Of a stretch of DNA of 64,000 nucleotides, positions 213-53,255 are shown piece after piece. Under the pieces are notes generated by a model. It did not search any database and was not told the DNA's origin. It saw only the letters and a program-made list of their open reading frames with translations. A program made the translations under genes and the position numbers. The stretch's first letter is position 1; each line of letters begins with the position of its first letter. Location: positions 966,237-1,030,236 of the forward strand of contig OZ242359.1 of NCBI GenBank assembly GCA_965208855.1, given 5' to 3'. The DNA is from Candidatus Azotimanducaceae bacterium (GTDB taxonomy: Bacteria > Pseudomonadota > Gammaproteobacteria > Pseudomonadales > Azotimanducaceae).

Positions 213-213
213 T

Positions 214-1059: not shown

Positions 1060-1060
1060 A

Positions 1061-1882: not shown

Positions 1883-2086
1883 GCGCGCCTCAATCCGGCA
1901 GTTTCCGACCGGCACATACCCTGGCGGCTTCCGGTCATCTGATCATGAGCGCCGCCTTGAGTATCACCCGCCTGTTCGTATAGGCCTGCCAACTCCCCCG
2001 CCGGCCTCTGGATGCTGACTTGACGCAATGTTATCTTCCCTGCAAATGCCGTAATCTATCACAACAGCCTGGAGGGTAATTGCTGG

Positions 2087-3271: not shown

Positions 3272-3308
3272 CCGGCATCGGCGGGAAACACTGTCGGCGA
3301 GGGGGAGC

Positions 3309-4166: not shown

Positions 4167-4180
4167 TTGCCTTGCTTACC

Positions 4181-4233
4181 CTCTTGGTTCTATTCTCTTG
4201 GTTCTATTCTCTTGGTTCTATTCTCTTGGTTCC
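4181..4233. repeat. 14-bp head-to-tail tandem repeat (CTCTTGGTTCTATT, about 3.8 copies)
   Basis: Read directly. Perfect copies lie at 4181, 4195 and 4209, with a partial copy at 4223. The array sits between the cimA stop (4263) and the DUF3014-like start (4166). Confidence 0.9.
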
Positions 4234-4262
4234 AGTCTGCCTGACCCGTTTCATCAGTCTGA

Positions 4263-5912: not shown

Positions 5913-6477
5913 GGCTGAGCTTCTCCGCCACCTTCCTGACTTCCGACGCAGCACTCAACAGGCTATCGAGGGGATCATAGGTTCCAGTGAGAAAAGCCTC
6001 AAGGGTCGATGCTTTCATCGTTACAGGATAGACGGCATTGGCGCAGACCACCTGCATGGCCTCCAGGTCGATAATAATCTCCGCATCCGGATTCGCCGTC
6101 ACATCCGCCGCCAGCCTTGCCCGATGCTCTTTGCTCATGACCACACATGGGATACCCAGGGTCGTGCAGTTGCCTTGAAAAATTTCCGCAAAAGAACCGG
6201 CTATCACCGCCTTCAGGCCAAACTTCATGATGGCCTGGGGCGCGTGTTCACGGCTGGAACCGCAACCGAAGTTGGCATCGGTTATCAATATCTCCGCACC
6301 CTTATGCTGCTTCGCGTCGAGTACATGATGCCTTGCGCTGCCATCTTCGTTGAAACGCTCGTCATGGAAAAGAGAAGGCCCCAACTCATCGAAGGTCACG
6401 CACTTCAGAAAACGCGCCGGGATAATCCTGTCCGTGTCTATGTCATTGCCCTGCACATAAACACCGCGACCGGCCAT
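5905..6477 (-). CDS. leuD: 3-isopropylmalate dehydratase small subunit
   Basis: The ORF spans 5905-6723, but the LeuD-like sequence begins at MAGRGVYVQGNDIDTDRIIPARFLK (ATG 6477, about 20 nt after the leuC stop). GCGSSREHAP is present. Confidence 0.85.
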   Translation of the reverse strand: MAGRGVYVQGNDIDTDRIIPARFLKCVTFDELGPSLFHDERFNEDGSARHHVLDAKQHKGAEILITDANFGCGSSREHAPQAIMKFGLKAVIAGSFAEIFQGNCTTLGIPCVVMSKEHRARLAADVTANPDAEIIIDLEAMQVVCANAVYPVTMKASTLEAFLTGTYDPLDSLLSAASEVRKVAEKLSHA

Positions 6478-6500
6478 TTTTACCCTGCCTGTCACGCTGC

Positions 6501-7922
6501 TCACGATGAGCCTCCCGTCAGTCCGAATACTTCCCGGGCATCCGCCACCTTGCCTTCGACCGCCGCCGCCGCCACCATGATAGGGCTCATCAGAATGGTG
6601 CGGCCTCTGGGAGAGCCCTGGCGACCAATAAAGTTCCTGTTTGAACTGGACGCGCAGACCTGGTCCCCCACCAGCTTGTCCGGATTCATCGCCAGGCACA
6701 TGGAGCAGCCCGGCTTGCGCCACTCGAATCCCGCCTGCTCGAATATCTTGTTCAGACCCGCCGCCCTGGCCGCCTTGTCAACCTTTTCCGAGCCGGGCAC
6801 GGCCAGAGCGCGAACATTATTCGCCACTTTTTTACCGGCAATGACCTTCGCAACTGCCGCAAAGTCGCTCAGGCGGCCATTGGTGCAGCTACCGATAAAA
6901 GCTACATCTATCTTTGTACCCTTGATGGGCGTACCCGGTGCAAGCTGCATGTAACCCAGCGCATCCGTGACAAGATTCTTCTCCAGGCCATCGACCTGCT
7001 CCGGGCCGGGCACCAACTCCTCAATAGAGATGGCCTGAGCCGGAGTTACACCCCAGGTCACCGTTGGCTTGATACTGCCCGCATCGATAACCACTTCATC
7101 ATCATAGGTGGCGTCCGCGTCACTGGCATAGGACATCCATCTTTCACGGGCCGCATTGAAGTCGGCGCCGGACGGCACGCGTTCGCGCCCCTTGAGAAAT
7201 TCAAACGTAGTTTCATCGGGCGTGATATAGCCGCAACGCGCGCCGCCCTCAATGCTCATGTTACAGACGGTCATGCGCTCTTCCATGGTCATGGACTCAA
7301 TCGCGGAACCCGCATATTCGTAGGCAAAACCGACACCGCCGTTCACACCGAGGGTTCTGATAATATGCAGTATCACGTCTTTGGCGGTGACCCCGACCGC
7401 CAGCTTCCCTTCAACGGCAATGCGCCTGACTTTCAGCGGGTCCATCGCCAGGGTCTGGCTGGCCAGGACGTCACGCACCTGGCTCGTCCCTATACCCAGG
7501 GCAATGCAGCCAAAAGCGCCGTGGGTTGCGGTGTGACTGTCGCCGCAGCAGATTGTCATACCCGGCTGGGTAAGACCCAACTCAGGGCCGACAACATGGA
7601 CGATACCCTGTGAACCTGATTCCGGCGGAAAGAACTCAATACCATGTTCTTCTGTGGCATCGCTCAACACCCGGACCATCTTCTCCGCCATATCGTCAGC
7701 CAGAGGCCTGGCCTGATTATCCGTGGGAATAATGTGATCGACAGTCGCGTAGGTTCGCTTCGGGTAAGCCACCTTCAAACCCTTGTCTTTGAGCATCCCG
7801 AAAGCCTGCGGGCTGGTCACCTCGTGAATAAGGTGCAGGGCCATGAATAGCTGATACTGGCCATTATCCAGCCGCCGTATAACATGGTCATCCCAAACTT
7901 TCTGAAAAAGATTCCTGCCCAC
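6501..7922 (-). CDS. leuC: 3-isopropylmalate dehydratase large subunit
   Basis: 473-aa ORF with [15 protein letters not shown], the aconitase-family cluster ligand region [15 protein letters not shown], and GSCTNGR. Confidence 0.9.
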
Positions 7923-12720: not shown

Positions 12721-12977
12721 CGTCATTCTCGCCGAGGCCGAAGGCCGAAGGCGGGAATCCAGAGTTGCGGTTCCGCGAAGCGGGAGCGCAATGGGTGCTG
12801 AAGCTACCACTGCGTCACCCCTATGGCGGCTACGCCGCCACTCTGGATTCCCGGGCTACGCCTGGAAACACTGTCGGCGATGGGAACAACCCCATCGCCT
12901 GGAAACACTGTCGGCGATGGGAACAACCCCCCATCGCCTGGAAACACTGTCGGCGATGGGAACAACCCCATCGCCTG
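12721..12977. repeat. REP-like mosaic cluster (module C, module B, then 3 tandem copies of module A)
   Basis: Module A is the hairpin GGCGATGGG-loop-CCCATCGCC with a GGAAACACTGTC flank. Module B is GGCGGCTACGCCGCC followed by ACTCTGGATTCCCGGGCTACGCC. Module C is CGTCATTCTCGCCGAGGCCGAAGGC..GGCGGGAATCCAGAGTTGCG...GCGCAATGGG. All were read directly. Confidence 0.9.
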
Positions 12978-13035
12978 GCCCGGCGGGATTTTGGTAGACT
13001 GCCGAGCAGGCCGATAAAAAAGGTGACACAAGAGC

Positions 13036-14211
13036 ATGAAAATTATAGGTAGCATAGCGCAGAGCCAAAATGAAATGACCGACTGGCGGCGTGATATACA
13101 CGCACATCCGGAAATCGCCTTCGAAGAACACAGGACGGCGGGAATCGTAGCGGAAAAGCTCGCAGCTTTCGGCATGGAAGTGGCAACCGGCATTGCCGGT
13201 ACGGGCGTTGTCGGCACCCTGACCCGGGGCCGTGGCAACCGCGCCATAGGCCTGCGGGCAGACCTGGACGCCCTGCCCATAGAGGAAGCGAATGATTTTT
13301 CTCACCGCTCCCAATACCCGGGCAAGATGCATGCCTGCGGTCACGACGGGCACACCGTCATGTTGCTGGGCGCCGCAAAATATCTTGCGGAACAGGGAGA
13401 GTTTGAAGGAACCGTCTATTTCATCTTCCAACCGGCGGAAGAAAACGAGGGCGGCGGCAAGGCCATGGTTGAGGCAGGGTTGTTTGAGCGATTCCCGATG
13501 GAAGCCGTGTACGGCATGCACAATATACCCGGCATACCGGTTGGCGCCTTTGCCGTCAAACCCGGGCCGATGATGGCGGCCTTTGATATTTTTGAATTGA
13601 CGGTTACCGGCAAGGGTGGGCATGCCGCCATGCCGCACCTGACGATTGACCCTATTCTTGTCGGCAGCAAAATTATTGACGCCTACCAGGCGATAGTCAG
13701 CCGGGTCATCAACCCCCAGGAGCCGGTGGTATTATCCGTCACCCGGTTTCACGGCGGCGATGCTTATAACGTGATTCCCAATGAAGTGGACATCAGCGGA
13801 TGTACCCGCTGCTTCTCCCCCGGTGTGCAGGAAACACTGGAATCACAAATGAAACAGATTGCGGAAGAAATTTGCGCTGCATACGGCGCAACTTGCGAGT
13901 ACAAGTATGAACGGCGATACCCGCCGACTATCAACTCGGAGCAGGAAGCTCACATGGCAGGAGAAGTCGCGCTGGATATAGTGGGGGCAGACAAGGTTAA
14001 CCTGCAACCGAGGCCCTCCATGGGCTCGGAAGACTTTGCCTATATGTTGCAGGAAAAACCGGGCGCTTATGTCTGGATAGGGAACGGCGATGGCGAGGGT
14101 TCCTGCATGGTTCACAATCCGGGCTATGACTTCAACGACAATATACTGACCCTGGGCGCCACCTGGTGGGCCCGCCTCGCGGAAAAGGAACTGCCGCCCA
14201 TCAGGAAATAG
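13036..14211 (+). CDS. M20-family amidohydrolase (hippurate hydrolase / N-acyl-amino-acid amidohydrolase-like)
   Basis: 391-aa ORF with MHACGHDGH and FQPAEE metal-ligand motifs. Confidence 0.85.
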   Translation: MKIIGSIAQSQNEMTDWRRDIHAHPEIAFEEHRTAGIVAEKLAAFGMEVATGIAGTGVVGTLTRGRGNRAIGLRADLDALPIEEANDFSHRSQYPGKMHACGHDGHTVMLLGAAKYLAEQGEFEGTVYFIFQPAEENEGGGKAMVEAGLFERFPMEAVYGMHNIPGIPVGAFAVKPGPMMAAFDIFELTVTGKGGHAAMPHLTIDPILVGSKIIDAYQAIVSRVINPQEPVVLSVTRFHGGDAYNVIPNEVDISGCTRCFSPGVQETLESQMKQIAEEICAAYGATCEYKYERRYPPTINSEQEAHMAGEVALDIVGADKVNLQPRPSMGSEDFAYMLQEKPGAYVWIGNGDGEGSCMVHNPGYDFNDNILTLGATWWARLAEKELPPIRK

Positions 14212-14212
14212 C

Positions 14213-14284
14213 TAGTTGACTGTCTAATTAACTGTCTAGTTGACTGCCTAGCTGGCTGTCTAGTTGGCTATCTAATTAACGGTC
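14213..14284. repeat. degenerate 12-bp tandem repeat, 6 units (TAGTTGACTGTC-like)
   Basis: Read directly. The units are TAGTTGACTGTC, TAATTAACTGTC, TAGTTGACTGCC, TAGCTGGCTGTC, TAGTTGGCTATC and TAATTAACGGTC. They fill the convergent gap between the amidohydrolase and korB. Confidence 0.85.
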
Positions 14285-15291
14285 CAGGTATGACCGCTGC
14301 GCAGCAGGCTATCCATGTCCGCCGTCTTTGTTTCCCGCACCAGCACACGTTGCTGGTAAACATCGTCCGTATAACTCGGTGCAGCGGGTTCGCAATAAAT
14401 AATGCCTATGGGCTCGGGAAAATCCGGCGACTTAAGGCCGGCAAGCATTTGCGCCAACACCTTGTTGGTTTCATCGTGAACAACCAGGTCATCTTCCGTC
14501 ATGCCATCTTCCCCGATGGTGACCACCTCAAGCTGCAAGGCCTTGGCGTTCAGGCGGATGCCTTTGTTATTGCCCTCGCCGAATATCAGCGGTTTGCCAT
14601 GCTCCAGCACCAGCCGGGTTTCTGCGGCGGTTTTCTTGTTCTTGATGTAGTCAAAAATACCGTCATTGTAGACCGGGCAGTTTTGATATATCTCGACAAA
14701 GGCGGCGCCCTTGTAACCGTGGGCGCGGGTCAATATCGGCGTCATGTGCTTGGCTTCCGTATCGATGACCCGGGCAACAAACCTGGCACCGGCACCCAGG
14801 GCAAAAGAGCAAGGGCGAAGCGGCATATCGACGGAGCCGTCCGGTGTTGACGGAGATGTGGTGCCCACTTTGGACGTGGGCGAATACTGCCCCTTGGTCA
14901 AGCCGTATATCTCGTTGTTAAACAACAGTATCTGCAAATCAACATTGCGGCGCAGTACATGCATCATGTGGTTGCCGCCAATGGAAAGGCCATCACCATC
15001 GCCGGTTATCACCCAGACATCCAATTCCGGATTGGCCAGTTTCACGCCCGTGGCAATCGAGGGCGCGCGGCCATGAATGGTATGAAACCCGTAAGTGTTC
15101 ATGTAGTAAGGGAAACGCGCTGCGCAGCCAATGCCGGAAACAAAGACCTGATTTTCCTTGGACACGTCCAATTCCGGCATCAGCTTCTGAATTGTTTTGA
15201 GGATGGCGTAGTCGCCGCATCCCGGACACCAACGCACTTCCTGATCGGAGGCGTAGTCTTTGATTGTTAATTTTTCAACGGGCGCATTCAT
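14272..15291 (-). CDS. korB: 2-oxoacid:ferredoxin (acceptor) oxidoreductase, beta subunit
   Basis: 339-aa ORF with CPGCGDYAIL, the TPP-binding GDGDGLSIGGNH, and a start directly abutting the alpha-subunit stop. Confidence 0.85.
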   Translation of the reverse strand: MNAPVEKLTIKDYASDQEVRWCPGCGDYAILKTIQKLMPELDVSKENQVFVSGIGCAARFPYYMNTYGFHTIHGRAPSIATGVKLANPELDVWVITGDGDGLSIGGNHMMHVLRRNVDLQILLFNNEIYGLTKGQYSPTSKVGTTSPSTPDGSVDMPLRPCSFALGAGARFVARVIDTEAKHMTPILTRAHGYKGAAFVEIYQNCPVYNDGIFDYIKNKKTAAETRLVLEHGKPLIFGEGNNKGIRLNAKALQLEVVTIGEDGMTEDDLVVHDETNKVLAQMLAGLKSPDFPEPIGIIYCEPAAPSYTDDVYQQRVLVRETKTADMDSLLRSGHTWTVN

Positions 15292-17157
15292 CTATGACTC
15301 CATCAGCGACTTGATCGCTGCTTCAACTTCACGAATTTTGAACGGCTGCCCGGATACCTTGTTGAGTTGTTGTGCGTCTATCAGGTATCTGGCGCGCAGC
15401 AAATCGACGAACTGGCCGGTGTTCATTTCCGGCACCAGCACATTCTCATAGGCAGAGAGCAGTTCACCCAGGTTTTTCGGCAGAGGGTTCAGATAACGCA
15501 CATGGATGTGCGACACGTCCAGCCCTTCCTGACGACATCGCCTGACCGCCTGATAAATGGCGCCATAGGTCGAACCCCAGCCAACCACCGCCAGTTTCCC
15601 CTTAGGGTCTCCTACTGACACTGCCTGATGCGGTATGAAGTTCTCAATGTTGTCTATTTTATTTTTACGCACATCGGTCATCTTCTGGTGGTTGTCCGCA
15701 TCGTAGGAAATATCGCCGGTTTCATAGCTCTTCTCGATGCCGCCGATACGATGCTCAAGACCGGGCGTGCCCGGCTTCGCCCAGACCCGCGCCAGGGTTT
15801 CCGGGTCTCTGTTGACCGGGGTAAACCCTTCCGGATTGTCGGCGAACGCAACAGGGAAGGCTTCGTAATCAGCCATGTTCGGCACCAGCCAAGGCTCGGA
15901 TGCGTTGGCCATGTATCCATCGGAAAGCAGGATAACCGGCGTCATGAAGCTGGTCGCCAACCGAATAGCTTCTATGGCAACGTCAAAACAATCCACCGAA
16001 CTACTGGCGGCGATGACCGGCAACTGGGTGTCCGCATGGCGGCCAAACAGCGCCTGATTCAGGTCTGACTGCTCCGTCTTGGTTGGCAGGCCGGTGGATG
16101 GGCCGCCGCGCTGGGTGTTGACGACCACCAGCGGCAATTCAGTCGCACAAGCAAGGGAAATGCCCTCCCCCTTCAGCGATATGCCCGGCCCGGAACTCGA
16201 TGTTACGCCAAGCGAGCCCGCAAAGGAGGCGCCTATGGCGGCACATACGGCGGCAATCTCGTCTTCGGCCTGAAAGGTCACCACGTCAAACTGCTTCTGG
16301 CCGGCCAAGGTGTGCAGCAAGCTGGAGGCCGGGGTAATCGGGTAGGAGGCAAAAGTAATGGACAGCCCCGCCAGTTGACCACCGGCAATCAGCCCATAAG
16401 CCAGCGCTTCCGTACCGGTGGTATTACGATACAGGCCGGGCGCCGATTTCGCTCTCGGCACCTTGTAAACCGCCACGCCCGTGGGCATCTCGGCGGTTTC
16501 ACCATAGGCATGGCCGGCATTCAGCGCCGCTATGTTGGCCTCCGCAATCTCGGGAATCTTCGCAAATTTCTTCTTCAGATTTGCAATGGTTGCGATGCGG
16601 TCCCTGTCGAACAGCCACATGACAAGACCCAGAGTCCACATGTTCTTGCAGCGCACCGCGAACTTGTGAGAGAGCCCGAAAGGTTTTACGGATTCAAGCA
16701 CCTGCTTCGTAATTTCGATGGACACAACGCGATAGGCATCGAGAGAACCATCTTCGATGGGGTTGGACTTGTAGCCCGCTCGGGTCATGTTCCTGTCCGT
16801 GAAGGCGTCTTTGTCTACGATCACCAGCCCGCCTGGCAGCAAATCCTTGAGATTGGTAATCAACGCCGCCGGATTCATGACGACCAGCACATCCACATCA
16901 TCGCCGGCTGTGCTGACATCCTCGGAACCAAAGTAAATCTGGAAGGCGGACACGCCGAAAGTGGCCCCTGCAGGCGCGCGTATCTCCGCCGGAAAATCCG
17001 GGAAAGTGGACAGATCATTCCCGTAGAGCGCAGTCGCCTCTGCAAAGTTACTGCCGGTCAACTGCATGCCGTCGCCTGAGTCTCCGGCAAAACGAACAAC
17101 GACCTCGCTAACCTGAGTAGCGCTGCCCTGACTGGTGATTTCTTCGACTACAGACAT
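15292..17157 (-). CDS. korA: 2-oxoacid:ferredoxin (acceptor) oxidoreductase, alpha subunit
   Basis: 621-aa ORF with the fused gamma/alpha-type architecture (N-terminal FAGDSGDGMQLTG, central SYPITPAS). Confidence 0.85.
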   Translation of the reverse strand: MSVVEEITSQGSATQVSEVVVRFAGDSGDGMQLTGSNFAEATALYGNDLSTFPDFPAEIRAPAGATFGVSAFQIYFGSEDVSTAGDDVDVLVVMNPAALITNLKDLLPGGLVIVDKDAFTDRNMTRAGYKSNPIEDGSLDAYRVVSIEITKQVLESVKPFGLSHKFAVRCKNMWTLGLVMWLFDRDRIATIANLKKKFAKIPEIAEANIAALNAGHAYGETAEMPTGVAVYKVPRAKSAPGLYRNTTGTEALAYGLIAGGQLAGLSITFASYPITPASSLLHTLAGQKQFDVVTFQAEDEIAAVCAAIGASFAGSLGVTSSSGPGISLKGEGISLACATELPLVVVNTQRGGPSTGLPTKTEQSDLNQALFGRHADTQLPVIAASSSVDCFDVAIEAIRLATSFMTPVILLSDGYMANASEPWLVPNMADYEAFPVAFADNPEGFTPVNRDPETLARVWAKPGTPGLEHRIGGIEKSYETGDISYDADNHQKMTDVRKNKIDNIENFIPHQAVSVGDPKGKLAVVGWGSTYGAIYQAVRRCRQEGLDVSHIHVRYLNPLPKNLGELLSAYENVLVPEMNTGQFVDLLRARYLIDAQQLNKVSGQPFKIREVEAAIKSLMES

Positions 17158-17172
17158 TAAACCTATGAACCC

Positions 17173-17208
17173 TCAATCAAACCTTCGATCAAACTCTCGA
17201 TCAATAAA
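17173..17208. repeat. three degenerate 12-bp tandem units (TCGATCAAACTC-like) just upstream of korA
   Basis: Read directly. The units are TCAATCAAACCT, TCGATCAAACTC and TCGATCAATAAA. Confidence 0.6.
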
Positions 17209-17352
17209 ACACGCACATGGCGTATAGCGAATCACGCTTGCGCCAGATAGCCCGAACCTTCTGACGGGCAACAAGTGTACAAAAAAACAAGCCCTTGGAC
17301 TAGCTAACCGCTGATGATACAGCCTCCTTCTACCACTCTATCACCCTATCAC

Positions 17353-18900
17353 TCACAGTTTCGCCTCTATCAGCGAAGGCCCCTCCGCGGCAAAACTCTG
17401 TTGCAAAGCCGCCGTAAATTCCTCCGCGCTGGCAACGGCTTGGCCCGGGACCCCCATACCAGCCGCCAGTTTAACATAGTCAATGGCCGGTCGAGACAGG
17501 TCAAACAGGTCCGCCGCCCTTTCGCCCACCTCATTGACGCCCAGCCTCAGATACTCGGTCTCCAGTATCCCGTACTTACTATTATTGAATATCACCGTGG
17601 TCACGTTCAGCCCTTCACGCGCCTGAGTCCAAAAGGCCTGATTGGTGTACATGAAGGCGCCATCGCCGAGCAGCGCGAGTACCGGCCTTTCCGGGCAGGC
17701 CACGGCGGCACCAACGGCAACCGGCCCGCCCTGACCAATGGCACCGCCTGTCAGATTGAGCCAGGTATTTGGCCTGCTGGACTGAACCGGCGCGAAAGCT
17801 GCGCCACCACCACCGGAATCACCACAAATAATGGCATTTTCCGGCAGAAGCGCGGCAATGGAAGTGGCGATGGAAGCAGTGGAAAGCTTACCGGCGGGTA
17901 ACTCCGCCTGCCGGTAATCACGCACAGCATAATCGCCGGATGCAACGCCCATCAAATCCGCCACGGCTTCAAGCGCCGCTATTGTATCCTCCCCTGGCCC
18001 GGAAAGCCTGATAACCTCGCAATCGTCCGGCGTCAGAGAACTCGGCGTGTCGGGATACGCAAAGAAACTGACCGGCGCATTCGCACCGGCGAGTATTATC
18101 TTCTGCACGCCTTTCAACATCCCCATCACCTGCTCCGGGAAATACAACATACGCTCCGTGGCGGGCGTACCCGCACCCCCATCGACACGGGCGGGGAAGG
18201 TGGCCAGGCAAACCCGGCAGCCCGTTTTTGCAGCAACACGACCTGCCGCCCTTCTCGCCTCAAGAGACAGGCCATCCCTGTCGAGCAGAAGCAGCGAGCC
18301 ACCATCGAGTGCATCAGCAACCGCCGTAATAACCTTGTCTTCAACCTGGGTCGGCCCGGCTACGGCCAATGGCCCTGCGACATCAGTGGCCGCCTGCCAA
18401 CAGGCATCCGCCGGAACAATCAGGGTCGCCACCTGCCCCCCGGAGCCCACTGCCGGCGTCATGGCCGCCTGTAATGCCAGCATCCCGTCACCCGCAAGGC
18501 TGCCCGCCGTGGAATCACTTTTTATCCAACAGGAAACATTTTTTGCGAGCGTCTCAATATCGGACGTCAGGAGCGCATCATAGGCGATATGGTAAAGCGG
18601 ATGATTGCCGACGAGATTGATGACGGGCGTGGAGGCGCGCCTGGCGTTATGCAGATTTGCAATGCCATTGCCGAGGCCGGGGCCAAGATGCAGGAGCGTT
18701 GTCGCCGGCGACCCTTTCATCCGGCCATAACCATCAGCGGCACCGGTACAGACACCTTCAAACAAAGAGAGTACGCCGCGCATTTCCGGGACGGCATCAA
18801 TGGCCTGCACGAGATGCATCTCCGATGTCCCCGGGTTGGCAAAACATACGTCAACACCCGCCGCCGTCAGCGACCGGAGCAGACTCTCGGCTCCATTCAT
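17353..18900 (-). CDS. thiamine-pyrophosphate enzyme of the acetolactate-synthase large-subunit family
   Basis: 515-aa ORF with N-terminal GVDVCFANPGTSEMH and the C-terminal TPP motif GDGAFMYTNQAFWT...NN. Confidence 0.8.
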   Translation of the reverse strand: MNGAESLLRSLTAAGVDVCFANPGTSEMHLVQAIDAVPEMRGVLSLFEGVCTGAADGYGRMKGSPATTLLHLGPGLGNGIANLHNARRASTPVINLVGNHPLYHIAYDALLTSDIETLAKNVSCWIKSDSTAGSLAGDGMLALQAAMTPAVGSGGQVATLIVPADACWQAATDVAGPLAVAGPTQVEDKVITAVADALDGGSLLLLDRDGLSLEARRAAGRVAAKTGCRVCLATFPARVDGGAGTPATERMLYFPEQVMGMLKGVQKIILAGANAPVSFFAYPDTPSSLTPDDCEVIRLSGPGEDTIAALEAVADLMGVASGDYAVRDYRQAELPAGKLSTASIATSIAALLPENAIICGDSGGGGAAFAPVQSSRPNTWLNLTGGAIGQGGPVAVGAAVACPERPVLALLGDGAFMYTNQAFWTQAREGLNVTTVIFNNSKYGILETEYLRLGVNEVGERAADLFDLSRPAIDYVKLAAGMGVPGQAVASAEEFTAALQQSFAAEGPSLIEAKL

Positions 18901-19488: not shown

Positions 19489-19556
19489 ACCGCCCCGCTG
19501 GCATCCTTCACAGGACCCACGGACCGACAGCCGCCACTAACGCGGCTGTTTTTTTA
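19489..19556 (+). ncRNA. candidate small RNA of about 65 nt (unknown family)
   Basis: It is bounded by the promoter above and a strong intrinsic terminator. There is no plus-strand ORF between or upstream. It lies exactly at the GC-rich to AT-rich transition. Confidence 0.35.
19527..19555 (+). terminator. rho-independent terminator
   Basis: An 8-bp perfect stem pairs ACAGCCGC (19527-19534) with GCGGCTGT (19542-19549). The loop is 7 nt and the stem is followed by a run of T residues to 19555. Confidence 0.7.
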
Positions 19557-19620
19557 TGGCTTTGTATTTCTCCGTATCCTGATTCCTGCCTGATATCCCA
19601 TAGCAGTTGAAAACATCGTT

Positions 19621-19797
19621 TCAAACATCCTTTCCAGGCAATGGCCTATCCTTGCGAATTTTACGTTGCCAGGCAGCAGGGTCTTTAATATGCGAGAACA
19701 AGTTTTTGGACTCTACTTCCTGCATGAGTAGAGCAAGCCTTGTACCACTAGGCTCTTCCTTTGGCAGTTTCTTTTTGTCTTTAGTCATTTTTTTCAT
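19621..19797 (-). CDS. small hypothetical protein (58 aa, basic)
   Basis: This is my own translation, below the ORF-track cutoff: MKKMTKDKKKLPKEEPSGTRLALLMQEVESKNLFSHIKDPAAWQRKIRKDRPLPGKDV. It is AT-rich and no family is recognised. Confidence 0.3.
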   Translation of the reverse strand: MKKMTKDKKKLPKEEPSGTRLALLMQEVESKNLFSHIKDPAAWQRKIRKDRPLPGKDV

Positions 19798-19948
19798 ATT
19801 ACTGAGTTGTTTGCCGAATTGGCTTATGAGTGTATCGTTTTTATTGAAAGATTAATGCAGCAATTTCAAAGACTCGGCAAGGCAAGATACACAATCCACC
19901 ACTGAGTAGCTGCTAAGGGCTACCACCTTTGTATTTCTCCAGGCTCCG

Positions 19949-20018
19949 TCAATCCCAGGCGATGGGGGGTTGTTCCCATCGCCGACGGTTCCTCCCGCCG
20001 AAGGCGGGAATCCAGAGG
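19949..20018. repeat. single REP unit (module A hairpin plus CCCGCCGAAGGCGGGAATCCAGAG)
   Basis: Read directly. It is embedded in AT-rich island DNA. Confidence 0.85.
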
Positions 20019-20140
20019 AATAAACAGCACTACCTTACCAGCCTCGTCTAGCCCGCTAGCGACTCTTTGCTATTGGGGGAAAAGGCTTCTTTCAATACCG
20101 CTTGCATCAGTTGTTTGGAATGGGTTTGGCTGGTCATTTT

Positions 20141-20512
20141 TTAATCGATATACACAAAAGATTGAGGTGCCTGTTTTATATTGAAATCTTGTAATTCTTT
20201 GTGTTTCTCATATTTTTTTGGGCTTTTAACCTTGATTGCATGTCCAATATCTCGTCCGCTGAAATACTCATCATAAAAATCTTTATCAACTCCCGCATGC
20301 TCCATAGTTTGCTTCCATAAGTCTGAGATGTCTGAAGATATAATATCCTCTACTTTAAATTCACCAATAACCTTACTTATCGGGCTTGACGCATAAACAA
20401 CTACTTTTTCTACAGAACGAACACGGAAAATAACCTTTCTAAACTCATAATGCTTTTTACCTGAAAATATTAAATTTGCATATTTTGGTTTAATCGATAA
20501 TAAAACCTTCAT
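20141..20512 (-). CDS. stand-alone ASCH-domain (PUA-like) protein
   Basis: 123-aa ORF. MKVLLSIKPKYANLIFSGKKHYEFRK...VVVYASSPISKVIGEF...PQSFVYI matches my recollection of COG4933-type ASCH proteins. It overlaps the upstream gene by 23 nt. Confidence 0.75.
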   Translation of the reverse strand: MKVLLSIKPKYANLIFSGKKHYEFRKVIFRVRSVEKVVVYASSPISKVIGEFKVEDIISSDISDLWKQTMEHAGVDKDFYDEYFSGRDIGHAIKVKSPKKYEKHKELQDFNIKQAPQSFVYID

Positions 20513-22004
20513 CTGCTTCTGACTCCCGTAATATTAATTCAAATTGTTCTTTGGTAATTGGTTCAAATCCTCTTGGGGCGCTATCTATATCTTTTATGAC
20601 TGTTAGTTCTATTAATTTGTCTAAATTTAATCTTTTAGGGAAAAAATATAAGTACAGAAATTTAACAACAAACGGTCTGTTTTGAGGGTCACGGTCCCAG
20701 TGTTTCAAAAGCTCTTCATCGGAAAATACACTGCGTTTTTGACATAAGTTAATAAATTCCTCTTGGGTTTTGATGTCTATAAAAACATTATCAACAACAC
20801 CAATAGTTGTTATAACACTTATGTGACGCCCACCAGTTCGATAAAACAAAATAATATCGCCTTTGTTTATATTTTTCTTCCAAGATCTAGAAATATAAAC
20901 CTTTTGTATTGCATTTCTATGAGGTTTATCATCGATAAAATTTTCAGGGTTTTCATTATTTAACATCGAATCTGGCAACAAATCGGTATGGTATTCTGGG
21001 TAAATTGGTACAAGAAAGAATTGTCTATTTTTATCTATAATTGGATGGGTTGATTTTGGATTATCTCTATTTGGTGTTGGGTGAAAATCTTTTATGTATA
21101 CTTGCTCATCGCCCGTGGGTGTATTCTTTATTCCATGATGTGTGAAACCCCAATCTTCTAATAATGCAATAAGAATTTGGTGGTTGTCTGTTTTGTTGAA
21201 AACGGTGACATAAATCTCATCAACATGATTTATTAAGGCATTGTCGAATATAATTTTTAAGAATCTTTCTCCTAGTTTATACCCAGTAGATACGACTTTA
21301 AAAGTTCCAATTTTTAATCTTTTCTTCGGAAGTAATAGCGGTTGTATGTCGTTATAATTTTCTTCCTCTGTTTCAGTTTTTATATATAAAAACGCTACAA
21401 TTTCATCCGCTTGAGATTTGCATACATAAGCATCCTCCTCAGACTTTGAATTAAACCATTTGTCAAATTCTTGATAGTCATTACGGAAAGAATCAAAGAA
21501 AGAATCTTTTATATTTAAATTTCCAAAATGTTTTCTTCGTACTGATAGAGTTTTATAGTCAGACAAACCTGGATTTTCAGCAGTTGATTTTTCTATGAAA
21601 TCATTAATTGAAAATATCTTGTGTTCAATATTTAGCCTTGTTGCTTTCTTATGAATCCCTCTATCTTCGGTGATTAAGTAATCAACTCGGTTTTCAAGAA
21701 CTTCTTTCAATAATGAAGTGTCTATTGCATCATTTTCATTTGTATCAATATCATTTCTTATCGATTGAATTGCATCAGATTCTGGTGCTTCTGTTTTAAG
21801 TAAATTGTAGTTTTGAATTTTGGTTTCTATTGTTTTGACAACTTTCTTGTCTTTGTGTTTTTTTATTTCATCTATTGATAATGGCGAAATACATTTTTCA
21901 TAACGTAATTTATCCAGCCAATTGAATAAAATGCCGATATCTTTATTTGTAACCCTACTAGCCTCTCTGTGAAGCAATATATTGGTATCTAGAAGAACTT
22001 TCAT
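20490..22004 (-). CDS. multidomain protein: N-terminal PIN-like nuclease, central GNAT-like acetyltransferase, C-terminal PUA-like (EVE/ASCH-like) module
   Basis: The ORF spans 20490-22025 with a TTG start. I prefer the ATG at 22004 (MKVLLDTNILL), 1 nt after the kinase stop. PIN acidic residues appear in LLDTN, DAIDTSLL and ITEDRG. The GNAT-like stretch is EIVAFLYIK...GYKLGERFLKIIFDNA...LEDWGF. The C-terminal stretch is KGDIILFYRTGG..ISVITTIGVV. The domain calls for the middle and C-terminal parts are by eye. Confidence 0.65.
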   Translation of the reverse strand: MKVLLDTNILLHREASRVTNKDIGILFNWLDKLRYEKCISPLSIDEIKKHKDKKVVKTIETKIQNYNLLKTEAPESDAIQSIRNDIDTNENDAIDTSLLKEVLENRVDYLITEDRGIHKKATRLNIEHKIFSINDFIEKSTAENPGLSDYKTLSVRRKHFGNLNIKDSFFDSFRNDYQEFDKWFNSKSEEDAYVCKSQADEIVAFLYIKTETEEENYNDIQPLLLPKKRLKIGTFKVVSTGYKLGERFLKIIFDNALINHVDEIYVTVFNKTDNHQILIALLEDWGFTHHGIKNTPTGDEQVYIKDFHPTPNRDNPKSTHPIIDKNRQFFLVPIYPEYHTDLLPDSMLNNENPENFIDDKPHRNAIQKVYISRSWKKNINKGDIILFYRTGGRHISVITTIGVVDNVFIDIKTQEEFINLCQKRSVFSDEELLKHWDRDPQNRPFVVKFLYLYFFPKRLNLDKLIELTVIKDIDSAPRGFEPITKEQFELILRESEADEGFIID

Positions 22005-22005
22005 A

Positions 22006-22542
22006 TCATTGCTCCAAATCGCCAATGAAGTTCAAAATTTTATTGGTTCCATTATTTATATCAAGCTCAATATAAGGTATTTGTAAACTAGCCGCTACAC
22101 TTTTTGAATATTTTAATTCTTCATTCTGAAATGACAATAACAAACCACGATCGTATGGTATTCCATCTCGCTTGGCATTTTTTCTTTGTATATTATCAAT
22201 TCTATCATGCAGAGTTATGATTGCTTTAGGCGATATGGAATCAAAAGTTTTTTGTGGTATGCGTTTTATATTACGCTCGGGGTCTAGCAAGCAAAAATGT
22301 CCATCCAGCAAACAGAGTCGAGTGTTATCGACATGATTATCAATCGCTGTTATTAAACTATTCTGATTTCCTTCAATATCTACGACTGACTTGTTGTCTT
22401 TGTTGATTGAGTTTGAGTTCAACATACCAATAAGGTTGCTGGCAGAATAATAATTCGCATCAACATCCACCAAAATTTTATCGCATAGCGTCGTTTTTCC
22501 TACACCATGAATACCACCGATAAATATTATATTTCTAGTCAC
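22006..22542 (-). CDS. small P-loop NTPase / nucleotide-(or RNA-)kinase-like protein
   Basis: 178-aa ORF with a GTG start and Walker A GGIHGVGKTT. A candidate Walker B-like hydrophobic strand ending in Asp is LCLLDGH. The size fits the adenylate-kinase-like fold. Confidence 0.65.
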   Translation of the reverse strand: MTRNIIFIGGIHGVGKTTLCDKILVDVDANYYSASNLIGMLNSNSINKDNKSVVDIEGNQNSLITAIDNHVDNTRLCLLDGHFCLLDPERNIKRIPQKTFDSISPKAIITLHDRIDNIQRKNAKRDGIPYDRGLLLSFQNEELKYSKSVAASLQIPYIELDINNGTNKILNFIGDLEQ

Positions 22543-22612
22543 GATGTTCTCTTGTAAATTTTCGCTCCAACTCGGTCAGGGACGATAGTTATAATTCTAT
22601 CGCTATTCTATT

Positions 22613-23887
22613 TCACTGCTGTCCCGCTAACGGTTTAATAAAGGAGGCCAAGCTTTCCCTTAATTGATACAATAAGTTTCGACAACACATTGTTTCAAAA
22701 AGGAAAAACTGGCCATGGCACATTGTAATACGATTCTTTCACAAATACTAAAACTAATACCAAAACATGAATTTGAGATCCTTGCAAAACAGCATCATTC
22801 AGGCCGATCTTTCCGAACGGCTTCCCGCTGGTCACAGTTTGTTACCATGACCATTGGGCAATTAGCGGGACGAAATAGTTTGCGTGATATCGTTGAAAAT
22901 ATATCGGCACAAACTCACAGGCTTTACCATTTGGGCAGTGCAAAGCTTTCTCGATCTAACTTGTCTCGCATTAATGAAGATAAACCCTACGCTCTTTATG
23001 AAGCCTTATTTGGAAAGCTATTGAATCGCTGCCAAGCGACGACTCCGGAACATGGTTTTCGTTTTAATAACCCACTGTATTCGCTTGATGCATCCACGAT
23101 CGATCTCTGTTTATCCACTTTTCCGTGGGCTGATTTCCGTTCAACAAAAGGCGCTGTTAAACTTCACGTAGGCTTGAATCATGCTGGATATATGCCAGAG
23201 TTTGTCACGATTACTGAAGGTAAAACCAGTGACATTGAAGTGGGTCGAACCTTAAGTTTCCCTAAAGGCAGTATCGTTGCCATAGATCGCGGTTATAATG
23301 ATTATTCCTGGTTTAACTCACTGACAAACAAGGGTATTTTCTTTGTTACTCGGCTGAAGTCCAATGCCAAAATACGCACAGTCCGTCGTCATGCCATAGC
23401 GTCTGGAAAAGGTTTGACCAGCGACCAAACTATTGAGTTTACAGGCACTCAAACAGCAAAAAAGTGTCCTGTTCAGCTGCGCCGTATTGGATATAAGGAT
23501 GCTGAAACAGGTAAGCACTACGTGTTTTTAACCAACAATTTCAAGTTGTCGGCTAAAACCATTGCTGATATTTATAAGTCGCGCTGGCAGGTTGAATTAT
23601 TCTTCAAATGGATTAAGCAAAACCTTAAAATCAAGTCTTTTGTCGGCACCAGTAAAAATGCGGTTATGACACAAATCTGGATTGCGTTATGTGTTTACTT
23701 ACTCGTTGTGTTTCTTAAATTCCAGTCGAAGTTAACCAAAACGTTGCAACAAATGTTACGTATCTTGCAGCTTAATTTATTTGAAAAACGCGATCTGATA
23801 GCCTTGATTAGGGGCGACCCGATTAAAGATGTTAACTTTGATCCCTGTCAGATGATTTTAATGTGAAAGTTAACGGGACAGCAGTGA
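22613..23887 (+). mobile_element. IS4-family insertion sequence (1275 bp)
   Basis: The terminal inverted repeats are TCACTGCTGTCCCGCTAAC (22613-22631) and the reverse complement of 23869-23887, TCACTGCTGTCCCGTTAAC, matching at 18 of 19 positions. There is a single transposase ORF. I found no clear target-site duplication. Confidence 0.85.
22715..23866 (+). CDS. IS4-family DDE transposase (DUF4372-type N-terminus)
   Basis: 383-aa ORF. The N-terminus KHEFEILAKQHHSGRSFRTASRWSQFVTMTIGQLAGRNSLRDI is typical of this IS4 subgroup. DRGY and YKSRWQVELFFKWIKQ motifs are present. Confidence 0.9.
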   Translation: MAHCNTILSQILKLIPKHEFEILAKQHHSGRSFRTASRWSQFVTMTIGQLAGRNSLRDIVENISAQTHRLYHLGSAKLSRSNLSRINEDKPYALYEALFGKLLNRCQATTPEHGFRFNNPLYSLDASTIDLCLSTFPWADFRSTKGAVKLHVGLNHAGYMPEFVTITEGKTSDIEVGRTLSFPKGSIVAIDRGYNDYSWFNSLTNKGIFFVTRLKSNAKIRTVRRHAIASGKGLTSDQTIEFTGTQTAKKCPVQLRRIGYKDAETGKHYVFLTNNFKLSAKTIADIYKSRWQVELFFKWIKQNLKIKSFVGTSKNAVMTQIWIALCVYLLVVFLKFQSKLTKTLQQMLRILQLNLFEKRDLIALIRGDPIKDVNFDPCQMILM

Positions 23888-24154
23888 CCTGCTTTACTGA
23901 TATTGCAACCAACTGAATACCGTGGCGACATGAACTTCGCTCAATTTAATAAGCGATTACCTCAAATTCTACAAAATACCAATGAAATTCACCATCCATC
24001 ATACGCGTGGCAAAGCCCGATGCGGGCAGATGGATGATGGGGTCCACTTCAAAATTAATTGCTAAACTATTCAAATATTTGTTATCACTCCTTTACTCCG
24101 TATCTTTTTTTGAACTATTAGATAAATGATTAGCAAAGTATGCGATTCTCCAAA

Positions 24155-25216
24155 TTAACGCCATAAAAATGCCCAAATAATTTTTATAACTCCTAACAAT
24201 CCTGACCATACTATGAGCCCTATCCACTTCATTCCTTCACTCAAGTCTTGCTCAATTCCTTTTCCAACCAACTGTCCAAAGGCCAGCCTAAATTGTGCTT
24301 TCGTATGTCCCTGCTTCGCAGCTTTCCTATACCAATACATTGCTTCACGCTCATCCTTTATAACTCCTTCACCATTAAAGTATGCAACACCTAAATCATA
24401 TTGCGCTTTCATGTGTCCCTGCCTTGCAGCTTTACTATACCAACCCACTCCCATATCCTTGTCTTGTTCAACACCCTTACCATTAAAATATGCAACACCT
24501 AAATCATATTGCGCTAAAGGGAACCCGTTTTCGGCAGCTTTGCGATACCATCGATTTCCTTCACGCTTGTCCTGCGCAACGCCTTCTCCATTGAGATATG
24601 CTAAACCTATACCGTATTGTGCTAACGCAATCCCCTGCTCCGCTGCCTTGCGAGTCCAGCGCACTCCTTCACGCTTGTCCTGTTCAACGCCCTCGCCATT
24701 AAAATATGCAAGACCTAAATTATATTGCGCTGTGGCAAGTCCCTGCTCCGCCGCCTTCCGGGTCCAACGTACTGCCTCACTTTTATCCTGCGAAACACCT
24801 TCTCCAGTGAAGTATGTAACACCTAACCAATATTGTGCGAACGCAACCCCCTGTTCAGCAGCTTTACGCCACCAATAGGTTGCTTCATGCTTATCTATCT
24901 CAACACCATACCCATAAAAGTACATAAACCCTAAACTTTGTTGCGCTAACGGCGTTCCCTCTTCCGCATCTATATAAAGCTGACGCAATCCCTCACCCTT
25001 AGCGTATCTAATACTTTTTAGATATTTTTCAATATCTGAAATAGATGACGATGTAAGCTTTGCAATTTCTTCTTCCGTCCATGATTTTGTTAATGCTATC
25101 TCTTCTTTTGTGTACTCATCACCTTTCATGGTTTCCACAATAAATAAAATCGTTGGCATAATAATCACGATTAATGCCAACAATGCTCCAATTACTTGAG
25201 CAATATTTTTAAACAT
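24155..25216 (-). CDS. Sel1-like repeat (SLR) protein with N-terminal membrane anchor
   Basis: 353-aa ORF with an N-terminal hydrophobic helix and about 7 tandem 36-aa units of the form AEQGxAxAQYxLGxAYxNGEGVxQDKxEGVRWxRKAA. Confidence 0.85.
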   Translation of the reverse strand: MFKNIAQVIGALLALIVIIMPTILFIVETMKGDEYTKEEIALTKSWTEEEIAKLTSSSISDIEKYLKSIRYAKGEGLRQLYIDAEEGTPLAQQSLGFMYFYGYGVEIDKHEATYWWRKAAEQGVAFAQYWLGVTYFTGEGVSQDKSEAVRWTRKAAEQGLATAQYNLGLAYFNGEGVEQDKREGVRWTRKAAEQGIALAQYGIGLAYLNGEGVAQDKREGNRWYRKAAENGFPLAQYDLGVAYFNGKGVEQDKDMGVGWYSKAARQGHMKAQYDLGVAYFNGEGVIKDEREAMYWYRKAAKQGHTKAQFRLAFGQLVGKGIEQDLSEGMKWIGLIVWSGLLGVIKIIWAFLWR

Positions 25217-25353
25217 TGTTTTATTTCCCTTATTTTTCCCACGTGACTTGTAAGAATGTAAGAGTGTAATAATTACTTTTTAGCTCGTTACATTAGCCAC
25301 AAAGAAAGATGCAATTATCAATGCTATTTAGCCCGCATCAGATTTTCTGCAAG

Positions 25354-26145
25354 TTACTCCACAAGATTTTCAATCGCTTCCAACCGTCTCTCTGTTTCTT
25401 TCCGTGCATCGCGGATTTCATTTTGTGACAGAGACCAATTATCGGGAAAATTATTTGCCGCTAATTTATTGCCACTGGCCTTGGAAATGGAAAGCCAGAT
25501 ATAGGCTTCATATTCATCGGTGATAACGCCATCCCCCACTAAGTATGAAACACCTAACCTAAATTGCGCAGCCGCATCTCCCTGCTCCGCAGCTTTGCGA
25601 GTCCAGCGCACTGCCTCACGCTTGTCCTGCGCAACGCCCTCGCCTTTATTGTATGCAAAACTTAACCTATATTGCGCTTTCGCATCTCCCTGCTCCGCTG
25701 CCTTGCGAGTCCAGCGCACTCCTTCACGCTTGTCCTGTTCAACGCCCTCGCCATTAAAATATGCATAACCTAAATTATATTGCGCTTCTGCAACTCCCTG
25801 CTCCGCAGCTTTTCGAATCCAGCGCACTGCCTCACGCTTGTCCTGCACAACGCCCTCATCATAATAATATACACCTAAATTATATTGCGCTTTAGCAAAT
25901 CCCTGTTCCGCCGCTTTGCGCCACCAACGCACTCCCTCACGCTTGTCCTGTGCAACATCCTCGCCATGATAGTAGGCATTACCTAAATTATATTGCGCTT
26001 CTGCAACTCCCTGCTCCGCCGCTATTTCAAATTGCGCTATTTCTTCCTCTGTCCACACAACATGTTTTGTCGTTTGCGAAACAAACACCACGGACACCAC
26101 AGACACCAACAAAACCCCAGCTACCAAAACAATTTTTTTAAACAT
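25354..26145 (-). CDS. Sel1-like repeat (SLR) protein with N-terminal membrane anchor
   Basis: The ORF spans 25354-26193. I prefer the ATG at 26145 (MFKKIVLVAG), which has a GAGGAG RBS 8 nt upstream. It has 5 SLR units. Confidence 0.85.
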   Translation of the reverse strand: MFKKIVLVAGVLLVSVVSVVFVSQTTKHVVWTEEEIAQFEIAAEQGVAEAQYNLGNAYYHGEDVAQDKREGVRWWRKAAEQGFAKAQYNLGVYYYDEGVVQDKREAVRWIRKAAEQGVAEAQYNLGYAYFNGEGVEQDKREGVRWTRKAAEQGDAKAQYRLSFAYNKGEGVAQDKREAVRWTRKAAEQGDAAAQFRLGVSYLVGDGVITDEYEAYIWLSISKASGNKLAANNFPDNWSLSQNEIRDARKETERRLEAIENLVE

Positions 26146-26230
26146 TGTGTTACTCCTCTTTGTTTGTTGGATATTCAAGCCTGAAACCCTCACGAGGTAG
26201 GTCTACATAGTAGCGTTTTTCTACTTTAAC

Positions 26231-26480
26231 TAAGTGCGTGCCCCGCGTCACTCCCATTGCAGTTTCGCTTCGCGGAACCGCAACTCTGGACCCCCGGGCT
26301 ACGCCTGGGAAACACTGTCGGCGATGGGAACAACCCCCCATCGCCTGGAATGACGGGAAGGAACTGGATCCCCGCCGGCGGCGAGGACGGTAAGGGGCAA
26401 GCCGGGCACATTGTTAATGGCGGCTTACGCCGCCACTCTGGATTCCCGGGCTACGCCCGACAAGAATGACGGGAAAAAGC
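26231..26480. repeat. REP-like mosaic cluster (modules C, A, B)
   Basis: It contains TCACTCCCATTGC...GCGGAACCGCAACTCTGGA, one module-A hairpin (about 26300-26345), and GGCGGCTTACGCCGCCACTCTGGATTCCCGGGCTACGCC. Confidence 0.9.
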
Positions 26481-26583
26481 AAACCCGAGGATGGCGGCAA
26501 GCGGCAAGCCCGCCTCTGCGCCACTAGAGCGGAATGGACGGAAAGCGAGCGGGCCGTGTGCCCTAGATGGGCCTGTTGTCCGC

Positions 26584-26808
26584 CTAGTGATAGGTGAACA
26601 CAAGGGACAGCTTGGTTTCATTCGTCAGGTTCCGGTCTGCGGCATGAAACAACTTGCTATGAAAGAAGAGCGCGTCTCCCTGAATGAGCAGGTTGTCGCT
26701 GCTCGGGTCACCATAAACCCCTTTCCCCGCAGTCTCCAAAATGCGGTATGGCACTTGTTCCGATGCCTTGATGTCGTCCTTTCGGGTGAGCCAGTTCAGC
26801 GTCGGCAT
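26584..26808 (-). pseudogene. chimeric remnant: N-terminus of an N6/N4 DNA methyltransferase (type III Mod-like) fused to a degraded duplicate of the phyH 3' end
   Basis: MPTLNWLTRKDDIKASEQVPYRILE...DNLLIQGD is the canonical start of Mod-type methylases. From QGD onward, ALFFHSKLFHAADRNLTNETKLSLVFTYH* parallels the end of the intact gene at 28466-29236. Nucleotide similarity continues down to about 26520. Confidence 0.7.
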
Positions 26809-26811
26809 GAT

Positions 26812-28101: not shown

Positions 28102-28212
28102 AATCACTAATGACCTACTTTCATATGCTGCATATAGATTGAGAAGGGGATTATGTAGCAAAGTGCCTACATAGTGTTTGATAGAATGGCACTAAATGCC
28201 CTTCCCTTATTC

Positions 28213-53222: not shown

Positions 53223-53255
53223 CGGCTATCTATGCGCTAACTATTTATGCACTGA

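Follow-up and report, generated by a model that had tools for sequence, protein, structure and literature searches.

The window, i.e., the whole stretch of 64,000 nucleotides that was analysed, contains on its minus strand the genes korA and korB for the two subunits of a 2-oxoacid:acceptor oxidoreductase, and both ends of this gene pair are occupied by arrays of 12-bp tandem repeats (Table 1). This agrees with the initial annotation, which had described korAB as flanked on both sides by such repeats; six units at the end of korB and three in front of korA were confirmed, both arrays are detected by Tandem Repeats Finder (TRF), and both go beyond what is found in simulated genomes (see below).

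Concerning the genes themselves, KorA matches the Pfam domains POR, POR_N, and PFOR_II and scores 625.6 bits against NCBIfam TIGR03710, above the cut-off of 482.75. KorB exhibits a clear match to Pfam TPP_enzyme_C (102 bits) and reaches 249.2 bits against TIGR02177, slightly below the cut-off of 261.9, with 192 of the 286 profile positions covered. On the basis of these profile matches, the predicted genes stand as korA and korB; the models passed are of subfamily level only and none of the KorAB matches reached an equivalog cut-off, such that 2-oxoglutarate is a putative substrate. In a search of genome contigs with KorA, relatives (Pseudohongiellaceae and other MAGs of Gammaproteobacteria) were found with at most 73% identity. 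An exact-protein look-up of the M20 protein encoded next to korB returned no record other than that of the window.

Table 1. Features of the korAB locus (positions in window coordinates).
Feature	Position	Strand	Basis
M20-family amidohydrolase gene, convergent with korB; the final unit of the 3' array adjoins its stop codon (14209-14211)	13036..14211	+	Gene call and profile matches
3' array, six head-to-tail 12-nt units (14213-14284 in the register of the initial annotation)	14212..14283	-	TRF and reading in the korB frame
Proposed seed unit of the 3' array, the final Thr-Val-Asn codons of KorB and the TAG stop	14272..14283	-	korB frame; KorB ends of relatives
korB, beta subunit of 2-oxoacid:acceptor oxidoreductase, 339 aa	14272..15291	-	Gene call and profile matches
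korA, alpha subunit of 2-oxoacid:acceptor oxidoreductase, 621 aa (ATG at 17157)	15292..17157	-	Gene call and profile matches; start MSVVEE kept in relatives
5' array, three 12-nt units (TTGATCGAGAGT, TTGATCGAAGGT, TTGATTGAGGGT), followed by TCATAGGTTTA and ATG	17169..17204	-	TRF; comparison with relatives
GAGGG, Shine-Dalgarno-like box within the start-proximal 5' unit	17170..17174	-	Genus-wide conservation (GTGAGGGTT..ATTTA ATG)
Terminator-like hairpin and T-run, immediately preceding the 5' array	17209..17225	-	Matches hairpin and T-run that precede korA in 9 other species
Degenerate copy of a genus-conserved promoter-like motif (in relatives TTGTTC-N17/18-TGTAAAAT), 64 nt upstream of the T-run	17273..17312	-	Comparison with relatives
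Gene for a thiamine-diphosphate enzyme (acetolactate-synthase-like large subunit), upstream of korA and co-directional	17353..18900	-	Gene call and profile matches

In the frame of korB, the units of the 3' array read ACC GTT AAT TAG, ATA GCC AAC TAG, ACA GCC AGC TAG, GCA GTC AAC TAG, ACA GTT AAT TAG, and ACA GTC AAC TAG, which is translated as TVN*, IAN*, TAS*, AVN*, TVN*, and TVN*. As stated by the initial annotation, the array includes the stop codon of korB (14272-14274, minus strand) and fills the gap behind this gene, its five downstream units (14212-14271) extending over the entire distance to the M20 stop codon. That each unit begins with a stop triplet, as was also noted there, applies to the plus strand; more is learned from the minus strand, on which the units end in TAG in the korB frame. 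TRF detected the array at 14212-14274 with a period of 12 (5.2 copies, 80% matches, score 77) and additionally called it with a period of 24 (score 90). Nine of the ten differences between the units are transitions, a pattern expected for unselected decay. The array was also considered as coding sequence, and this was rejected: stops occur in all three frames of the minus strand and in two of the plus strand, and the sole open plus-strand frame comes after the M20 stop and is interrupted in three strains by a 13-nt unit. No intrinsic terminator is recognisable between korB and the convergent M20 gene, and the array sets the spacing of the two.

The 5' array is situated 12-47 nt upstream of the korA start codon; its units correspond to the three 12-mers previously placed 16-51 nt upstream, which is the same array in another register, and TRF called it at 17168-17204 (3.1 copies, score 53). 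Each of the units holds a purine-rich, Shine-Dalgarno-like box (GAGAG, GAAGG, or GAGGG), GATC sites are present in the units as well, and the distance between the GAGGG box and the ATG is constant in all five strains compared. The array probably forms part of the 5' UTR, and given this position its copy number could alter translation or mRNA stability. Neither the arrays nor their surroundings yielded a promoter in a sigma-70 scan, a comparison with Rfam that covered arrays and leader here and in seven relatives gave no match, inverted repeats are absent from the arrays, and the predicted RNA folds of both arrays are no better than those of shuffled sequences.

A search for further occurrences of the two 12-mers in the genome (2.9 Mb) was unsuccessful: each has a single exact match, and the sites that differ by one mismatch occur singly and dispersed. 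In total, TRF reported 456 rows for the genome, and 87-92 arrays have a period of 9-15 and at least three copies. Three simulated genomes of the same size (Markov-3) yielded between 9 and 14 TRF rows, with top scores of 61-68, and in none of the three did an array of period 9-15 reach three copies, such that both korAB arrays exceed chance. More than half of the arrays with period 9-15 (56%) are situated in or at non-coding DNA, which itself constitutes 13% of the genome, and 79 of the 2159 intergenic gaps carry such an array. Several of the other arrays also repeat a stop codon in frame (e.g., MLE*/TMLE*/TMLE* at genome position 2518618). Pairs of arrays two genes apart were observed five times, with 2.8 expected (p=0.16); arrays at both ends of a two-gene unit do not exceed the chance level.

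For the comparison of strains, five contigs of one species were available, the other strains having been located by exact-protein look-ups. Across these contigs, korAB is 98.8-99.2% identical over 2883 nt and shows no coding indel. Repeat numbers are polymorphic at both ends, with five different counts in the 3' array (4, 5, 6, 7, and 11 units) and three in the 5' array (2, 3, 5, 2, and 5 units), which bears out the slippage-prone spacers that had been among the earlier suggestions. In the 3' array, order and sequence of the units vary as well, and its smallest allele (4 units, found in one strain) measures 49 nt; allele sizes of the 5' and 3' arrays do not co-vary between strains. The 13-nt unit present in the 3' array of three strains rules out a coding constraint on this array, with the proviso that the other contigs are metagenome assemblies, one of them at 5x coverage, in which single-base details such as this unit could be errors. 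Whole-unit differences with altered unit order are unlikely to be assembly errors. In a 13.7 kb alignment of three strains, all indels of at least 6 nt fall within arrays detected by TRF, and strains also deviate from one another by one unit in the 14-bp array at 4181.

Both arrays are thus quite probably locus-specific VNTRs (minisatellites), neutral or nearly so, that were copied by slippage or unequal exchange from the ends of korAB; they combine head-to-tail copies beyond chance, a unit number variable among strains, and a unit confined to one locus. Replication slippage or unequal exchange would have duplicated short stretches of korAB's own ends, and slippage together with neutrality is the most likely interpretation. 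The 3' array would have grown from the 12 nt that encode the last three residues of KorB and its stop. Every copy carries its own stop and translation halts at the first, such that gain or loss of units leaves KorB unchanged. The 5' array, in turn, would have grown from the stretch bearing the Shine-Dalgarno-like GAGGG box; its start-proximal copy keeps the spacing, and units would be gained or lost distally or through duplications just ahead of the fixed TCATAGGTTTA-ATG. The two belong to the roughly 90 arrays of this kind in a genome prone to repeats and are most likely neutral or nearly so.

The further possibilities raised by the initial annotation, protein-binding arrays and insertion scars left by acquisition of korAB as a unit, are not supported. 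That the arrays are scars left when korAB was inserted or horizontally acquired as a cassette is extremely improbable. The immediate flanking genes of korAB, which in this genome are unlike those of most relatives, would fit such an event; however, korB is found in 17 of the 18 genomes of the genus (76-86% identity), the sole exception being only 57% complete, and a LeuC-like neighbour gene exhibits the same identity range and is located 10-25 kb from korB in most of these genomes. GC content (55.9% in korAB vs. 54.3% in the genome) and GC3 (0.66-0.67 vs. 0.62 +/- 0.09) are typical for the genome, there is no integrase, inverted repeat, or target duplication at the locus, and the two arrays are unrelated in sequence, each being built from korAB's own ends. 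Judged from these comparisons of sequence, korAB is inherited vertically and lies in its ancestral neighbourhood. In 17 other species, the 12-mers are absent from the korAB flanks, and KorB ends in TV[S/N/D/E]-stop without an array. This absence from the orthologous loci, together with the uniqueness of the 12-mers in the genome, also argues against binding sites of a regulator recognising direct 12-bp repeats (operator or iteron-like), which is highly improbable despite the regular and direct arrangement of the repeats, the GATC sites in the 5' units, and the motif GTTAATTAG in two of the 3' units, which we take to resemble an ArcA-type half-site. This motif simply represents the Val-Asn-stop codons of korB, number and order of the units differ between strains, the 3' array is located behind the operon, and a period of 12 bp fails to hold sites on one face of the helix.

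It is very unlikely that the 3' array constitutes a Rho loading site on the korAB transcript, with one YC per 12 nt of untranslated RNA replacing the absent hairpin terminator. YC dimers do occur at array positions 2, 17, 29, 41, and 65 (spacing 12-15 nt), their 10-nt linkers are within the range of 9-13 nt for Rho primary-site motifs (PMC6144790), and the RNA of the array is without significant structure (z = -1.4). However, the C>G skew, among the most relevant descriptors in a Rho model (PMC6144790), is absent (16 C vs. 15 G in 73 nt), [(YC)N9-13]6 motifs arise by chance about 3.5 times per kb in E. coli (PMC6144790), one strain possesses only four units, and other species have no such array. 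Somewhat different, and unlikely, is a role of the arrays as expression tuners similar to contingency loci, in which Shine-Dalgarno-like boxes and 12-nt steps of the UTR at the 5' end and spacing at the 3' end would lead to heritable differences in KorAB level between strains. The copy number is different in every strain examined, each 5' unit contains a Shine-Dalgarno-like box and is situated between the leader hairpin with its T-run and the start codon, and korB is not separated from the convergent gene by an intrinsic terminator, all of which would suit such tuning. Against it, about 80 further intergenic gaps, next to unrelated genes, carry arrays of this type, the 5' and 3' allele sizes lack co-variation, the start-proximal Shine-Dalgarno geometry is constant in all strains, and neither a -35/-10 spacer nor the reading frame contains the 12-nt steps, such that the classical on/off mechanism is inapplicable. 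It is quite unlikely that both arrays are selected for heritable fine-tuning of korAB, the 5' boxes and leader length setting translation and the 3' array setting the convergent buffer and possibly the length for Rho loading; in that case, the rapid gain and loss of units would be adaptive and not neutral.

As presumably neutral VNTRs, the arrays can be compared to the minisatellite loci used for MLVA typing, e.g., the ETR/MIRU-VNTR loci of M. tuberculosis or the 12-bp vrrA of Bacillus anthracis. Common to both are head-to-tail units of about 10-100 bp, restriction to one locus, whole-unit differences between close strains, and a mostly intergenic location, whereas the korAB arrays differ in that their seeds are visible: the last codons with the stop for the 3' array, the Shine-Dalgarno region for the 5' array. 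Simple-sequence contingency loci, which underlie phase variation in Haemophilus, Neisseria, and Campylobacter, consist of units of 1-8 nt inside a reading frame or between -35 and -10, where a change by one unit switches the gene on or off. They share with the korAB arrays the slippage-prone, gene-adjacent repeats with copy numbers varying between cells or strains, whereas the korAB units are 12 nt long and are situated after the stop codon (3' array) or in the leader, between its hairpin with T-run and the constant Shine-Dalgarno-ATG stretch (5' array), and can therefore provide no on/off switch. Iterons and operators keep both their sequence and their number and are met again wherever the binding protein acts. 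Despite the general similarity to such arrays in having direct repeats at regular intervals close to one helical turn, the korAB arrays are degenerate, variable among strains, and restricted to a single locus, and their motif was encountered neither at orthologous loci nor at other targets. They also differ from dispersed elements of the REP/MITE type, the 12-mers being unique and showing no inverted repeats and no significant fold. No description of either korAB array was found in the literature searched, in which minisatellites are described as the smallest class of strain-variable segments (PMC2884548).

The korAB arrays are common, rapidly changing repeats, most likely products of copy slippage, and no feature identifies them as sites of regulation or as acquisition scars. 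They are uninformative on the acquisition or regulation of korAB and of small import for korAB biology. With five alleles in five contigs, they are usable as strain-typing markers for this uncultured species, and the 3' array constitutes a clean example of why tandem duplications spanning a stop codon survive. For annotators, regular repeats beside genes of this genus are the mark of a mutational habit of the whole genome and not of a binding site.

The genes korA and korB (see table) are predicted to encode a two-subunit oxidoreductase, a call that holds to subfamily level. KorA exhibits the Pfam domains POR, POR_N and PFOR_II and passes the NCBIfam model TIGR03710 (2-oxoacid:acceptor oxidoreductase alpha subunit; 625.6 bits, cut-off 482.75); KorB possesses a clear TPP_enzyme_C domain and scores just under the cut-off of TIGR02177 (249.2 vs 261.9 bits). 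The 12-nt arrays reported in the initial annotation on both sides of korAB, i.e., after korB (3' array) and ahead of korA (5' array), were confirmed by Tandem Repeats Finder (TRF) and exceed simulated genomes: three whole-genome Markov-3 simulations, run through TRF as null model, yielded 9-14 rows each with top scores of 61-68, and none contained an array of 9-15 nt period with at least three copies, such that both arrays are real.

Features at korAB and at compared loci (window positions unless a contig or the genome is named)
Feature	Position	Strand	Remarks
korA	15292-17157	minus	621 aa
korB	14272-15291	minus	339 aa; co-directional with korA
M20 amidohydrolase gene	13036-14211		convergent with korB; stop codon 14209-14211
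3' array	14212-14274/14284		TRF: 12-nt period, 5.2 copies, 80% matches, score 77; at 24-nt period, score 90
5' array	17168-17204		TRF: 12-nt period, 3.1 copies, score 53
Terminator-like hairpin and T-run	17209-17225	minus	directly upstream of 5' array
Promoter-like motif and hairpin/T-run leader	17209-17312	minus	also upstream of korA in relatives (loci L104, L105, L109, L111, L114 and others)
In-frame stop array	genome 2518618		MLE-stop/TMLE-stop/TMLE-stop
In-frame stop array	genome 1878852		ALL-stop/VLV-stop/VLV-stop
In-frame stop array	53226-53267 (genome 1019462)		between convergent genes; 15 nt x 2.8; units supply in-frame stop codons for both genes
In-frame stop array	genome 2027434		between convergent genes
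REP-like palindromic unit arrays	12859-12978, 33257-33342, 55777-56055		
Island	19500-28200		PIN-GNAT/ASCH cassette, IS4 element, Sel1 genes
Island	L120 (same-species contig) 1-6850		type I restriction-modification system, AAA_13 and NYN genes
Island	L121 (same-species contig) 1-7100		N6_N4 methylase with ResIII helicase, pentapeptide-repeat genes

On the strand and in the frame of korB, the 3' array is preceded by ...CAT ACC TGG and consists of the units ACC GTT AAT TAG, ATA GCC AAC TAG, ACA GCC AGC TAG, GCA GTC AAC TAG, ACA GTT AAT TAG and ACA GTC AAC TAG, followed by CTA; their translation is TVN, IAN, TAS, AVN, TVN and TVN, each with a stop. Unit 1 is the true end of KorB and the last unit adjoins the stop codon of the M20 amidohydrolase gene (CTA on the korB strand), and thus the 60-nt gap between the genes equals five units exactly. 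KorB of 17 other species in the genus terminates in TV[S/N/D/E]-stop without a following array; the korB end is thus the ancestral seed, and the array consists of tandem copies of that end. Transitions account for nine of the ten differences between units, and units 1 and 5 have the same two changes in common (GTTAATTAG); the unit differences fit copying followed by unselected decay. Genome-wide, CTAG occurs at half its expected number (1360 observed vs 2746 expected), and four CTAGs are found within 72 nt of the 3' array (roughly nine-fold the average density in the genome).

The 5' array reads on the korA strand TTTTA / TTGATCGAGAGT / TTGATCGAAGGT / TTGATTGAGGGT / TCATAGGTTTA, then ATG. Since in relatives this place is taken by GTGAGGGTTGAGATTTA-ATG or a close variant, the start-proximal unit holds a Shine-Dalgarno (SD)-like GAGGG box conserved in the genus; the distal units repeat it in diverged form, with the boxes GAAGG and GAGAG. 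The window also has, 64 nt upstream of the T-run, a degenerate version of a promoter-like motif (TTGTTC-N17/18-TGTAAAAT); in 10 of the 12 species examined this motif precedes a hairpin and T-run by 53-102 nt, and the korA start comes another 52-167 nt on. This conserved combination, for which Rfam contained no match, could constitute a korAB leader with attenuator or a small RNA gene. Species of the genus differ greatly in the length and sequence of the stretch from T-run to SD box, and the 5' array sits within this unconstrained spacer.

Other strains were found by exact-protein look-up (four same-species contigs, two ENA metagenome assemblies). Checked for repeat-number polymorphism, both arrays proved variable among the five contigs, with 4-11 units in the 3' and 2-5 units in the 5' array (L120, 4 and 2; L144, 5 and 5; window, 6 and 3; L121, 7 and 5; L143, 11 and 2, respectively). 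The korAB coding sequence (2883 nt) is 98.8-99.2% identical among the five versions, with no indel, and TCATAGGTTTA-ATG with the adjoining GAGGG-bearing unit is constant in all five. One 3' unit measures 13 nt in three strains, and therefore coding constraint on this array is absent; as the strain contigs were assembled, one of them from 5x coverage, differences of whole units are more secure than details of single bases. In an alignment of three strains (13.7 kb, 201 variable columns), all indels of at least 6 nt lie within TRF-detected arrays. In a comparison over 17 kb against one strain (L119), a perfect array upstream of the DUF3014 gene (14 nt x 3.7, window 4181-4232) has one unit more in that strain. 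At window position ~3301, where the window has no detected tandem array, L119 is longer by 41 nt.

Arrays of this kind are widespread in the genome, which contains 456 TRF rows in 333 loci and 87-92 arrays with units of 9-15 nt and at least three copies; among those listed, all units are mutually different. Genes were called roughly (2160 genes, 86.9% coding); on that basis, 49 of 87 arrays are situated in or at non-coding DNA (about 4-fold enrichment) and 13 touch a stop codon. Several whose period is a multiple of three carry copies of the stop codon in frame, as at korB. A dispersed palindromic unit of 37-40 nt (REP-like hairpin, G-rich loop) is also tandemly arrayed at several loci, in 2-7 copies each; the array at 12859-12978 exhibits a difference of 27 nt in L121. 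G015, another small-genome species of the genus, possesses a different array (four copies of 11 nt followed by three of 22 nt; locus L018) beginning on its own korB stop codon. The G015 genome is exceptionally array-rich: array loci per 200 kb sample number 85 in G015 (sample loci L132-L141), 18 in the genome under study and 13 in a further genome (G018). The G015 density is about 5 times that of the genome under study and roughly 100 times that of simulations of genome size (2.9 Mb, 9-14 TRF rows); 68 of the 85 array loci have 9-15 nt units.

Concerning the initial suggestion that korAB was acquired as a unit, the evidence speaks against it: 17 of the 18 genus genomes have korB (76-86% identity), the exception being only 57% complete; a neighbouring LeuC-like gene exhibits the same range (78-87%), with G015 and another genus genome (G013) lowest for both, and in most genus genomes it shares a contig with korB at a distance of 10-25 kb (7 kb in the window). 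GC content (55.9% vs 54.3%) and GC3 (0.66-0.67 vs 0.62 +/- 0.09) are near genome values, and between species only the genes immediately beside korAB differ. Upstream of the TPP-enzyme gene, an island differs in content in each of three strains and looks like a hypervariable defence island. The framing itself is within chance for this genome, since 79 of 2159 intergenic gaps bear a 9-15 nt array and array-bearing gaps two genes apart number 5 vs 2.8 expected (p = 0.16).

Further copies of the 12-mers did not turn up: each matches exactly only once within the 2,906,700-nt genome, one-mismatch matches are scattered single sites, and neither motif was found at the korAB flanks of other species. 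The arrays had no Rfam family match, did not fold more stably than shuffled controls (z = -1.4, -0.7, +0.3), and neither contains an intrinsic terminator or sigma-70 promoter. The 3' array was considered as a Rho-loading site, as its YC dimers recur at 12-15 nt, with linkers inside the 9-13 nt range applied by Nadiras et al. (PMC6144790); however, YC motifs with such 9-13 nt linkers occur by chance about 3.5 times per kb in E. coli (PMC6144790), a C>G skew is absent (C 16, G 15), and the array is only 49 nt long in one strain. The 5' array may have a putative role in tuning expression via extra SD-like boxes and leader length. Most likely, both arrays are ordinary and presumably neutral VNTRs that would have arisen by slippage on korAB's own sequences, the 3' array on the stop codon and the 5' array on the SD sequence, and would be tolerated since neither the first stop codon nor the proximal SD box is disrupted. 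VNTRs of this kind are already known, and the korAB locus is simply a new example.
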